Positions 23,044 to 26,253 of a stretch of 64,000 bases of DNA are shown in pieces (within the stretch, counting starts at the first letter, position 1; each line of letters opens with the position of its first letter). Position numbers and translations under genes: made by a program. This DNA comes from Thiotrichaceae bacterium UBA4486 (GTDB taxonomy: Bacteria; Pseudomonadota; Gammaproteobacteria; Eutrophobiales; Eutrophobiaceae), in contig DGNS01000015.1 in assembly GCA_002389045.1 (NCBI GenBank), positions 376,894-440,893 of the forward strand, given 5' to 3'. Under the pieces are notes generated by a model. It had not been told where the DNA came from. It saw only the letters and a list, made by a program, of their open reading frames with translations, and did no database searches.

Positions 23044-23148
23044 AAAATAAAGCAGCCGTTTTTTTCAGCGCGTGGTCGGCGCGTGTCTTCCTGTCGAAAT
23101 TGAATATTTCAAAACTTGCCCCGATATTACGGGTCTCACTGGCGGTTA

Positions 23149-23169
23149 AACCCTGACGTTGCATAAATT
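23149..23169 (+). repeat. 25-bp motif copy A (AACCCTGACGTTGCATAAATT) in the htpX promoter region.
   Basis: Matches 24 of 25 positions of the reverse-complemented copy at 24326-24354. It is closely related to the copy at 24159-24185. Confidence 0.6.
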
Positions 23170-23185
23170 ATCGAGGTAACGAATC

Positions 23186-24067
23186 ATGCTGCGAATCGTT
23201 CTGTTTCTGGCGACGAATATCGGTATTTTGCTGGTGCTCAGTGTCACCATGCGGCTGCTCGGCATCGACAGTATGCTCGAACAGCAGGGGGGCGGTCTGA
23301 ACCTGACCGGGCTTTTGATTTTCGCTGCTCTGTTTGGCATGGGGGGTGCGTTCATATCGCTGGCCATGTCCAAATGGCTGGCAAAAAAAACCATGGCTGT
23401 ACAGCTGATCGAAAGACCGGCCAACGCCACCGAACAGTGGCTGACGGCAACGGTGCAGAGCCAGGCCAGGCAGGCCGGCATCGCCATGCCGGAAGTGGGG
23501 ATTTTCAATTCGCCCGCGCCCAACGCCTTTGCCACGGGGATGAACAAAAATGCGGCGCTGGTGGCGGTGAGCAGCGGTTTACTGGAACAGATGAACCGCG
23601 ATGAAGTGGAAGCGGTTCTCGGCCATGAAATCAGTCACGTCGCCAACGGCGACATGGTGACGTTGACCCTGGTGCAGGGTGTGGTCAACACGTTCGTGAT
23701 TTTCTTTTCACGCATCATCGGGCATATGGTCGATCGTCTGGTCTTCAAGGTGCAGCGCGGTCACGGCCCCGGCTTCTGGATAGGCACCATTGCCGCCCAA
23801 CTGATTCTTTCCATAGTGGCCAGCATAATCGTCATGTGGTTTTCGCGTTACCGGGAGTTCCGGGCGGATGCCGGTGGCGCCCGTCTCGCCGGTCGTGAAA
23901 AGATGATTGCGGCGTTGAGGCAACTGCAGCGATCCAGTCAACCGCCTTCCATGCCCGACGAGATGCAGGCATTCGGAATCGCCGGCGGCAGGAGTGCCGG
24001 TTGGAAGAAGCTGTTCATGACCCATCCGCCGCTGGAGGAGAGGATCGCGGCACTGGAGCGATCCTGA
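23186..24067 (+). CDS. htpX: Heat-shock protease HtpX (M48).
   Basis: HEISH zinc motif, four transmembrane segments, and a C-terminal [13 protein letters not shown]. Confidence 0.9.
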
Positions 24068-24149
24068 ATGACTGTTGTGAAGCAGCGGTGAATCAGCCGC
24101 CTCCCGGGGTTGTGACAGCTGTTTCTATGCCCGGATTGTGACATTGGGC

Positions 24150-24354
24150 ATCAGGGTTTACCCCTAACGTTGCATAAATTTTTGGATGCAGGGGCTTTTA
24201 GAGCGGTATTTTCCGGGTCGCGCGCAGATTTTTCCAACCGGAGCATAGCTCACTCTATGTGAGGATTGGAAAAAGCGAGCACGGCCCGGAAAATGCTGCT
24301 ATAGAAGGAGCGGAGCTGTCCTGCGCCAAAAATTTATGCAATGTCAGGGTTTAC
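24150..24354. repeat. MITE-like, highly structured intergenic element bounded by inverted copies B and C of the 25-bp motif.
   Basis: Left end CCCTAACGTTGCATAAATTTTTGG (24159-24185). Right end, reverse-complemented, CCCTGACATTGCATAAATTTTTGG (24326-24354). Between them are the nested inverted repeat attttccgggtcg/cggcccggaaaat and the hairpins gagc-ata-gctc and ctcac-tctat-gtgag. Confidence 0.55.
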
Positions 24355-24713
24355 TCAAGGCGGATGTCATCGGCTTTTGTCCAGGGCGGGCTGACCAGGG
24401 CGAGGAATACCAGATCCCCCTGACCCGTATTCTCAATCCACTGTACGGCATCCGGTGGAATGTAGACAACATCGCCTTCGCTGACGTCTTCTGCACTGTC
24501 ATCGATATGCATCCGCCCGTGTCCCTTGAGTATGTAATAGACTTCCGCCTGCTTCAGTTTGTGGCGGTAGGAATGATGCGCGGGCGCTACCCGGGCATGG
24601 GCTATGGAATAGGGAAGGTCGACAGGCTCTTTCGCCGGATGCAATACCTCGCGAATGCGGCAGCCATCGTTGGCGATGAATTCCGGACACGCACCGATAT
24701 TTTTTACAAACAT
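24351..24713 (-). CDS. Cupin-domain protein (120 aa).
   Basis: C-terminal block HSYRHKLKQAEVYYILKGHGRMHIDD....GDVVYIPPDAVQWIENTG is typical of the cupin_2 fold. The upstream extension offered by the ORF track is unlikely to be real. Confidence 0.6.
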   Translation of the reverse strand: MFVKNIGACPEFIANDGCRIREVLHPAKEPVDLPYSIAHARVAPAHHSYRHKLKQAEVYYILKGHGRMHIDDSAEDVSEGDVVYIPPDAVQWIENTGQGDLVFLALVSPPWTKADDIRLE

Positions 24714-24737
24714 GAACGACTCCGTTATAACGTGCCT

Positions 24738-25850
24738 ATGCCGAAGTATACGGGTAATCCCGATTACCAACACGACTCGATACCCCGCATCGGGATCCTC
24801 ATGACCAATCTCGGTACGCCGGATGCACCCACGGCGGCGGCCCTGCGTAAATACCTGGCGGAGTTTCTCGCCGATCCGCGCGTCATCGAGGTTCCGAAAA
24901 TACTCTGGTGGCCGGTATTGCACGGCATTATCCTGCGTACCCGCCCGCGCCGCTCGGCGGAAGCCTATGAAAAAGTCTGGACATCCGAAGGTTCACCCCT
25001 GCTGGCCATCACCCGCAGGCAGGGTGATGCGGTGCAGCGTCTGCTTCGTGAACGCCTTGGCGATAGCGTGAAAGTGGTAATCGCCATGCGCTACGGTGAA
25101 CCGTCCATCCGCCAGGGACTGGAGGAATTGCGCGCCGCCAACGCCCGCAGGATCCTGTTGTTGCCACTGTATCCGCAATACGCGGCGGCAACCACGGCAT
25201 CCACCTTTGATGCCGTCAGTGCCGTGCTGAAAACCTGGCGCTGGCTGCCCGGTCTGCGCATGATCGATCATTACCATGATGATCCTGGCTACATTTCGGC
25301 ACTGGCCGCCGCCATTGAGCGACATCAGGCCACACACGGCAGACCGGACAGACTGATCTTTTCCTTTCACGGTATTCCACGTCATTACTTCGACGCCGGT
25401 GATCCCTATCATTGTGAATGTCAGAAAACCGCGCGCCTGGTTGCGGAAAAAATGCAACTGGGTGATAACGACTGGCAGTTGACGTTTCAGTCGCGTTTCG
25501 GACCGCGTGAGTGGTTACAACCCTATACCGATGTCACGCTGAAAGGGCTGCCCGCACAGGGTGTCCGGCATGTCCAGGTTGTCTGTCCGGGCTTTGCCGC
25601 CGACTGTCTGGAAACACTGGAAGAAATCAATATGCAGAACCGGGAATTTTTCATCAACGCCGGCGGTGAAACATTTTCCTATATACCGGCCCTGAACGAT
25701 GACGAATTGCACATCCAGGCGCTCGCTGATCTGATCACACTGCATCTCGGCGGCTGGATTAACGAAGATGATCAACCCTCGCCGGAATCCCTTGCACAGT
25801 CCGGTGCAACGAGCCGCCAGCGCGCGCTGTCAATGGGTGCAAAAAACTGA
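24738..25850 (+). CDS. hemH: Ferrochelatase.
   Basis: MPKYTGNPDYQHDSIPRIGILMTNLGTPDAPT...FSFHGIP...QSRFGP. This is collinear with HemH. Confidence 0.9.
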   Translation: MPKYTGNPDYQHDSIPRIGILMTNLGTPDAPTAAALRKYLAEFLADPRVIEVPKILWWPVLHGIILRTRPRRSAEAYEKVWTSEGSPLLAITRRQGDAVQRLLRERLGDSVKVVIAMRYGEPSIRQGLEELRAANARRILLLPLYPQYAAATTASTFDAVSAVLKTWRWLPGLRMIDHYHDDPGYISALAAAIERHQATHGRPDRLIFSFHGIPRHYFDAGDPYHCECQKTARLVAEKMQLGDNDWQLTFQSRFGPREWLQPYTDVTLKGLPAQGVRHVQVVCPGFAADCLETLEEINMQNREFFINAGGETFSYIPALNDDELHIQALADLITLHLGGWINEDDQPSPESLAQSGATSRQRALSMGAKN

Positions 25851-25888: not shown

Positions 25889-26043
25889 CGGCTATAATCG
25901 AATTAGCTTATAAAAATCCAGGCCATGGTTTATGTCGTGCATCACGAAGTCCCGCCAGCAGTTCCTCGTAGTGTATTGCATAATGATTAACCGGTTTTTT
26001 ACAGGCGAAAATGCTTCAATCAAGTGCAATACAGGATAATATA

Positions 26044-26253
26044 ATGTCAGAAACAGTAACTGGTAAGGTTAAATTCTTTAACGAATCGAAGGGTTTTGGT
26101 TTCATCACGCAGGCAGATGGACCGGACGTTTTCGTTCACTTCAGTGCAATCCAGGCCGATGGTTTCAAAACCCTGGCCGAGGGGCAGGAAGTAGAATTCA
26201 CCATTGTCGATGGTAAAAAAGGTCCCCAGGCTGAAAACGTAAGACCGCTGTAA
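26044..26253 (+). CDS. cspA: Cold-shock protein, CspA family.
   Basis: [21 protein letters not shown]...[12 protein letters not shown]1 and RNP2 motifs present. Confidence 0.9.

Follow-up and report, generated by a model that had tools for sequence, protein, structure and literature searches.

A short motif that occurs three times around the htpX gene in a 64-kb stretch of DNA from Thiotrichaceae bacterium UBA4486 (contig DGNS01000015.1; the whole stretch is called the window here, and all coordinates are window positions) is the terminal inverted repeat (TIR) of a group of IS1380-family elements, and the two copies downstream of htpX are the ends of a 188-bp non-autonomous MITE (miniature inverted-repeat transposable element) of that group at 24162-24349. 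This identification is held with high confidence. An earlier note on this DNA had proposed a miniature inverted-repeat element that carried a promoter or operator motif, a regulator site shared by htpX and the convergent cupin gene, or a structured small RNA. The miniature element is now confirmed, as an empty site exists, the target site is duplicated, copies occur elsewhere and an autonomous insertion sequence (IS) matches it. We infer in addition that the element was mobilised in trans, that the motif copy upstream of htpX is a relic produced by deletion and that a regulatory role is absent.

For Nezha, a MITE of Anabaena/Nostoc, the criteria used were TIRs matching those of an IS, direct repeats, a stable foldback and the comparison of filled with empty sites (PMC3184786). 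The element in the window is 188 bp long, lacks a transposase gene, has TIRs of 24 nt that are common to an autonomous IS, is flanked by a target duplication for which the empty site was found, and has copies at unrelated loci. Its parent was assigned to IS1380 by a transposase that scores above the cut-off of the family model and by direct repeats of 4-5 bp.

Filled and empty sites at the htpX locus

The motif AACCCTGACRTTGCATAAATT was found without mismatch at 23149-23169 (+) and 24331-24351 (-) and with two mismatches at 24160-24180 (+). Three matches in the window compare with none in 100 dinucleotide-preserving shuffles of the window, so the observation that the motif stands three times around htpX was correct, and neither a motif scan nor a BLAST search with the element revealed further copies elsewhere in the 64 kb. 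The repeat unit proper starts at CCCT (23151, 24162, and 24349 on the minus strand), and the preceding bases are target-site sequence. The first copy does lie upstream of htpX, at a distance of 16 nt from the ATG at 23186 and not of 15 as had been stated. The distal pair forms 24-nt inverted repeats (24162-24185 and 24326-24349; 92% complementary) with 140 nt between them, as described previously, while the interior forms an imperfect palindrome of its own, its 45-nt arms lying at 24195-24239 and 24263-24307. Of the mechanically listed open reading frames (ORFs), a single one of 54 aa overlaps the element in part.

The exact HtpX protein and its closest relatives were looked up in public assemblies, and the same locus was recovered in three states. 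Haplotype A (the window, L001-L003 and L006) has both the upstream motif and the 188-bp element, haplotype B (L142-L147) has the upstream motif with one substitution (CCCTGAGG) and lacks the element, and haplotype C (L004, L005 and L148) lacks both. Haplotype B was recovered from metagenomes of Namib salt-pan mats (bioRxiv 10.1101/2022.02.18.481119), and its downstream site can be read in L142-L146, L147 stopping short of it. Up to 24161 this haplotype is 98.8-99.1% identical to the window, and around the site it is identical at 24002-24161 and 24350-24401 with exactly 193 bp fewer between, while haplotype C is ~95% identical to the window. Relatives with an 85% identical HtpX (L149-L153) have no such motif. 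The earlier note had taken uniqueness of the motif to this locus, together with its absence from orthologous htpX regions, as an argument against a mobile element; such absence is indeed seen, but it speaks for mobility instead.

The empty site of haplotype B has TCAGGGTTTACTCAAGG at the junction, in the longer context ...GGGCATCAGGGTTTACTCAAGG..., whereas the filled site reads ...TCAGGGTTTAC, then the element from CCCTAACG to CAATGTCAGGG, then TTTACTCAAGG.... The 193 extra bp correspond to a 188-bp element with a 5-bp duplication, TTTAC, or to a 189-bp element with the duplication TTTA. A target duplication of 11 bp (TCAGGGTTTAC) was also considered and was rejected, because the tips of other copies are complete (CCCT...AGGG) and their duplications span 4 bp. 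The insertion point lies 1 nt beyond the cupin reading frame and 94 nt beyond the htpX stop; the target TTTA overlaps the cupin stop, and neither gene was disrupted. The third motif copy had been said to overlap this stop codon; the TAA does fall within the motif copy, but it lies 1 nt outside the element proper, in the duplicated target.

Directly to the left of the TTTA target, the empty sites of haplotypes B and C (L142 and L004, for example) already have TCAGGG, which in haplotype C reads CGTCAGGG. The stretch concerned, 24149-24156, is identical over 6-8 nt to the TIR tip (the reverse complement of CCCTGACG), and this pre-existing sequence together with the duplicated target makes up the 11-bp direct repeat D9 of the filled site. 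Read from the sequence, the simplest explanation may be a still older, almost wholly deleted insertion at the same tetranucleotide; an alternative is that the transposase was attracted to an end-like sequence.

Two further observations were made on these assemblies. Haplotype B (L142-L145) is ~99% identical to the window up to 24401 and ~95% identical from 24402 on, through the cupin gene and hemH, a change that suggests a recombination boundary close to the MITE site. Two JGI scaffolds of this locus, L002 and L003, have ten-N runs where the MITE loop should be, and L003 has one also over most of the relic upstream, evidently because the scaffolder broke at the inverted repeats.

The same ends on other elements, and the relic upstream of htpX

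A metagenome scan with the 24-nt TIR returned 20 loci, 14 of which hold complete copies of 186-190 bp that are 86-98% identical to the window element and have unrelated flanks, three of them on a single 467-kb contig. Target duplications were recognised in 11 of the 14 copies, nine of 4 bp, one of 5 bp (L130) and one of 3 bp. Species-representative genomes were scanned with CCCTRACRTTGCATAAATT, and more than 115 stretches were found among the matches listed. Most of these listed matches lie at contig ends in the metagenome-assembled genome (MAG) of an Olavius-associated Delta-1 symbiont, a position explained by the tendency of repeats to break assemblies; the others are from Desulfobacterales, Cellvibrionaceae, other Gammaproteobacteria, Thermoguttaceae, Psychromonas and Nostoc. 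In the Delta-1 MAG itself (L007-L121, CACVKW01 contigs), very many contig ends stop inside a MITE of 228-268 bp with the same TIR, and this MITE is a major cause of the fragmentation of that assembly.

Where both ends lie on one contig, two kinds of element were distinguished, small ones of 187-268 bp and larger ones of ~1.54-1.59 kb. Outside the window, eight of nine small elements have perfect 4-bp duplications (TTAA, TTGA, TTTA, TACA, CTAA, TCAA or TCTA). Still shorter mini-elements of 55 bp (L128, 62-116) and 69 bp (L136, 288-356) also occur; they are internally deleted to almost nothing but the two TIRs and have T-rich flanks, with TTTA on both sides in L128. The larger elements are complete in L135 and L062 and reach contig ends in L070, L078 and L117; the repeat at their second end, CCCTCTGGTTGCATAAAAA or CCTTCTAGTTGCATAAATT, is similar. 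The ORF of L070 scores 239.7 bits on NCBIfam NF033539, the IS1380-family transposase equivalog model (cut-off 180), and matches Pfam PF13701 (DDE_Tnp_1_4) with E = 2e-42. The ORFs of L078, L117 and L135 are ~464-480 aa long and 74-78% identical among themselves, and L062 gave only a 132-aa tblastn match at 43% identity. In L135 (1539 bp) the end distal to the transposase gene is CCCTAACGTTGCATAAATTTTTGG, identical to the left TIR in the window including its TTTTTGG extension. A search of plasmid records with the window element gave no match, and with the transposase it gave matches only at ~24-26% identity, to annotated IS1380-family genes (ISKpn23-like); the transposase therefore belongs to a distant clade of IS1380. 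Assignment to a named IS was dropped, the best identity in the plasmid records being ~25%.

In the tetranucleotide beside CCCT, taken from 128 distinct flanks (L007-L141), position -4 is T in 115 cases and position -1 is A in 116, and the commonest targets are TTAA (23), TTTA (19), TAAA (16) and TATA (15). As read from these flanks, the insertion target of this IS1380 clade is T-W-W-A, duplicated as 4 bp, with tips CCCT...AGGG. Such targets often contain TAA, so that landing on a stop codon is unsurprising. At the Cellvibrionaceae copy L049 (6902-6917), the TIR provides an adjacent 316-aa gene with its five final codons and its TAA stop (...YPNVA*); a 293-aa open frame beside the same copy was compared as another possible htpX and proved unrelated.

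Taken as a sequence of events, a 188-bp MITE with no gene of its own would have been moved in trans by an IS1380-family DDE transposase, which would recognise ends of ~19-24 bp and insert into T-W-W-A with duplication of 4 (sometimes 5) bp. The MITE would have landed in the TTTA overlapping the cupin stop, 94 nt downstream of the htpX stop, and probably did so recently, after the split from the sister strain that is ~99% identical over htpX and its upstream region. The upstream copy would represent a separate, older event, namely a related MITE of which deletion left only a stump of 25 bp.

Several points weigh against this account. The tip-like sequence of 6-8 nt beside the target preceded the insertion; it is unlikely to be there by chance and is accounted for only by assuming an older relic. 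The duplication in the window is 5 bp, or 4 bp with an extra base, against the 4-bp norm of the family here. Had haplotypes B and C lost the element by precise excision, their empty site would look no different, and the polarity of the change is to that extent only probable. Finally, the 64-kb window holds no IS1380 transposase gene, a tblastn search with the L135 transposase returning chance matches only.

The upstream relic (23151-23175) is preceded by TAAA, a typical target. Aligned with the left end of the MITE L043 from Exilibacterium, it agrees at 23 of 25 positions, the subterminal ATTATCGAG included, and it matches the right TIR of the intact MITE, in inverted orientation, over 22 of 23 nt. 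As its subterminal ATTATCGAG is unlike the TTTTTGG of the intact downstream element, the relic derives from another, related copy, of which it is the stump. Haplotypes A and B have the relic, haplotype C and the outgroup (L149-L152) do not, and since haplotype B has it without the MITE, it is older than the intact MITE and of independent origin. Where haplotype C reads GGTTAA-CTGTTTA-GAGG, haplotypes A and B read GGTTAA-ACCCTGACGTTGCATAAATTATC-GAGG, and the relic would have arisen by a deletion running from inside the element to the host GAG; its junction may lie at GAG microhomology beside the Shine-Dalgarno sequence. Upstream of the relic, 23100-23127 resembles the E. coli sigma-32 promoter consensus and is regarded as a candidate promoter only. 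Both of its boxes are found again, as TTGAAA-N14-CCCGATTAT, upstream in L149, where the sequence cannot otherwise be aligned. If the candidate is a promoter, the relic would sit in the htpX leader and add 16 nt to it.

This position of one copy between the putative promoter and the htpX start codon, and the good conservation of the copies, are what an operator coordinating htpX and the cupin gene would predict, but we consider such an operator very improbable. The same sequence ends transposase-encoding elements and MITEs with target duplications in Desulfobacterales, Cellvibrionaceae, Nostoc and others, beside unrelated genes across many phyla. In haplotype C and the outgroup htpX has no copy beside it, haplotype B lacks the downstream two, and in haplotype B the relic is already substituted (CCCTGAGG). 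The proposed regulator site shared by the two genes fails on these same absences, haplotype B being without the downstream pair, haplotype C without all three copies and the relative with 85% identical HtpX without the motif. Nor is a promoter or operator motif carried by the element supported: the motif is an end recognised by the transposase, and scanning revealed neither a sigma-70 promoter nor an intrinsic terminator there.

One might also see in the relic (23151) and the right MITE end (24349) the borders of a 1.2-kb unit resembling a mobile insertion cassette, which would contain htpX but no transposase gene and be movable in trans. These ends are inverted with their tips outward and complementary over 22 of 23 nt, and IS1380-family elements can mobilise adjacent DNA as "transposable modules" (PMC3281130). 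Such a cassette is nevertheless quite unlikely: the flanks hold no direct target duplication (TAAA on the left versus TTTA on the right), the two ends arrived separately, as haplotype B demonstrates, and the order HAD hydrolase-htpX is kept in the relative with 85% identical HtpX. The lack of a common duplication, the separate arrival and the synteny argue that the bracketing of htpX is accidental, and on the same three grounds htpX as the cargo of a composite element was rejected. Any significance of the two transposon ends, correctly oriented about htpX as they are, is considered less likely than the selection on the foldback discussed below.

The foldback and a possible role as RNA

The predicted RNA fold of 24140-24365 is one rod-like hairpin, of -110.5 kcal/mol on the plus strand (z = -9.0) and -87.2 kcal/mol on the minus strand (z = -7.3). 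All 16 aligned copies fold better on the strand corresponding to the plus strand of the window (the top strand), by 10-24 kcal/mol, and the more distant subfamilies have a preferred strand too. The 71-pair consensus structure of the 16 copies has 97.1% of its cells paired when read on the top strand, as against 87.9% for the bottom strand. Compensatory changes were counted at 15 pairs, against 6.4±1.8 in column shuffles (0 of 500 reaching 15) and 0-5 with slid partners, in a set of copies that are related by descent and with a structure predicted on the favoured strand; 13 of the 15 pairs lie in interior helices outside the TIRs, which the transposase would not be expected to require. Among non-Watson-Crick pairs common to at least two copies, G·U on the top strand accounts for 13 sites and A·C for none, whereas among singletons the numbers are 11 and 12; given the shared ancestry, the shared G·U sites may represent few events.

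MITEs of the ERIC type and similar elements have been reported as mRNA hairpins that block exonucleases or transcription. It is a tentative possibility that the MITE described here was also co-opted as RNA, in which case its hairpin, with a stem of ~70 bp, would stand at the 3' end of a transcript, either that of htpX (top strand) or that of the cupin gene (bottom strand), and block 3' exonucleases or transcription between the convergent genes. The strand preference common to all 16 copies and seen in distant subfamilies, the compensatory pairs in excess of shuffles and the asymmetry of shared mismatches all point in this direction, and transcripts of MITEs can form such regulators (PMC10969869). 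On the other side, no U-tract follows the hairpin and no intrinsic terminator is predicted there, haplotype B lives without the element, and the orientation of the copies relative to neighbouring genes is ambiguous at n = 16 (raw ORFs, codon-position GC). Upkeep of the foldback could, moreover, serve transposition and not the host. From the modelled structures it is doubtful, if conceivable, that the foldback is selected over its whole length as a single strand and that a hairpin transcript would be functional either for the host, by 3'-end protection or insulation between convergent genes, or for the spread of the element.

A discrete small RNA, as once suggested for this site, finds no support in the Rfam, promoter and terminator scans; covariation and a strand bias nevertheless mark the hairpin as conserved, and a role for its transcript is conceivable. 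In this region Rfam gave nothing at the gathering score and only chance-level matches at E<10, and a scan of the element for sigma-70 promoters and intrinsic terminators gave nothing beyond background. An intergenic and strongly palindromic repeat might also be one of the REP/BIME palindromes (20-40 bp, lacking TIRs and target duplications) that RAYT transposases (IS200/IS605-like) disperse, or else an independent small-RNA gene; we regard both as extremely improbable. A length of 188 bp, TIRs of 24 nt, a target duplication and ends common to DDE-type IS1380 elements all contradict the former, and the latter would be without an Rfam match above chance even at E<10 and without a promoter or terminator of its own.

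Neighbouring features and known relatives

The features of the locus are listed in Table 1. The closest named relatives of the HtpX protein are from uncultured Gammaproteobacteria, at 77% identity.

Table 1. Coordinates of the mobile-element features and adjacent genes in the window
Feature	Position	Strand	Remarks
Intact MITE, non-autonomous, IS1380 family	24162-24349	+	188 bp; imperfect foldback over whole length; better-folding "top" strand is window +
Left TIR, CCCTAACGTTGCATAAATTTTTGG	24162-24185	+	Same 19-24 nt end on MITEs and full-length ISs in many genomes
Right TIR, CCCTGACATTGCATAAATTTTTGG read on -	24326-24349	-	Identical right end in copy L124, in unrelated context
Left copy of target-site duplication	24157-24161		TTTAC (5 bp), or TTTA (4 bp) plus extra C at element tip
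Right copy of target-site duplication	24350-24354		Holds complement of cupin stop TAA (24351-24353, -)
Solo relic of related MITE end, CCCTGACGTTGCATAAATTATCGAG	23151-23175	+	Outer tip to the left, after TAAA; between putative htpX promoter and Shine-Dalgarno sequence
TIR-tip-like TCAGGG beside target	24151-24156	-	Pre-existing; CGTCAGGG in haplotype C, the reverse complement of CCCTGACG
htpX, M48 protease, 293 aa	23186-24067	+	Pfam PF01435; JGI name "heat shock protein HtpX"
Cupin gene, 120 aa	24351-24713	-	Convergent with htpX; Pfam PF07883 (Cupin_2); ORF
Candidate sigma-32-like promoter, TTGAAT-N13-CCCCGATAT	23100-23127	+	Putative; read from sequence

A 504-aa open frame (24336-25850) begins with an ATG inside the right TIR and runs antisense through the cupin gene into hemH. 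Public annotations of L001 and L004 give a "ferrochelatase" of 504 or 491 aa in place of the cupin gene and the 370-aa hemH (24738-25850), and the 504-aa frame looks like a gene-calling artefact. The sole Rfam match in the window is a cspA thermoregulator (RF01766; 25912-26290; 90.2 bits against a gathering score of 78), which spans the leader and the start of a cold-shock-domain gene at 26011-26253.

The element resembles prokaryotic MITEs such as Nezha, Correia, ERIC and Chunjie in being small, non-coding and intergenic, in its foldback, in TIRs shared with a full-length IS and in having filled and empty sites. It differs from the MITEs named in two publications (PMC3184786, PMC10969869) in that its sequence is unrelated as far as checked and has no match in Rfam or the plasmid records. 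With the ERIC-type mRNA-hairpin MITEs it has in common an imperfect palindrome over the whole length, a 3' intergenic position between convergent genes and a strand-biased fold; its sequence is again unrelated, and the likeness is drawn here from sequence and predicted fold. IS1380, the parent family here, is not mentioned in a 2024 review of prokaryotic MITEs (PMC10969869), and from this, together with the lack of a plasmid-record match, the element appears to represent an undescribed MITE family of a well-known kind.

Like members of the IS1380 family (IS1380, IS1247, ISEcp1, ISKpn23), the full-length partners are ~1.5-1.6 kb long with a single ORF, short TIRs and duplications of 4-5 bp, IS1247 being listed with a 5-bp direct repeat (PMC3281130). 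Unlike them, the element in the window has no gene, no outward promoter of the ISEcp1 type was detected in it, and the partner transposase is distant. The tip sequence of piggyBac is CCCTAGA.... The elements described here share with piggyBac a T-W-W-A target (TTAA being the commonest), a 4-bp duplication and CCC...GGG tips, but their target is relaxed (TTTA, TAAA, TATA, TCTA and others) where that of piggyBac is strictly TTAA, and they are prokaryotic and a quarter of the size; the two were compared by sequence alone. IS1380 transposases form the prokaryotic outgroup of piggyBac (PMC10813416), and the T-W-W-A target and CCC...GGG tips fit this kinship.

The element at the htpX locus is ordinary selfish DNA and not a regulatory site. 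Since the motif around this gene for a stress protease is debris of a transposon, no co-regulation of htpX and the cupin gene should be inferred from it. Its practical harm lies in broken assemblies, with contig ends and N-gaps at the repeats, and in start and stop codons that mislead gene callers. The locus provides a clean and datable case of MITE gain, with filled and empty sites in strains that are ~99% identical over htpX and its upstream region, and a MITE family from a divergent clade of IS1380 has been documented. If the strand-biased, covarying hairpin proves to be functional, it would add another case of a MITE shaping the 3' ends of mRNAs.

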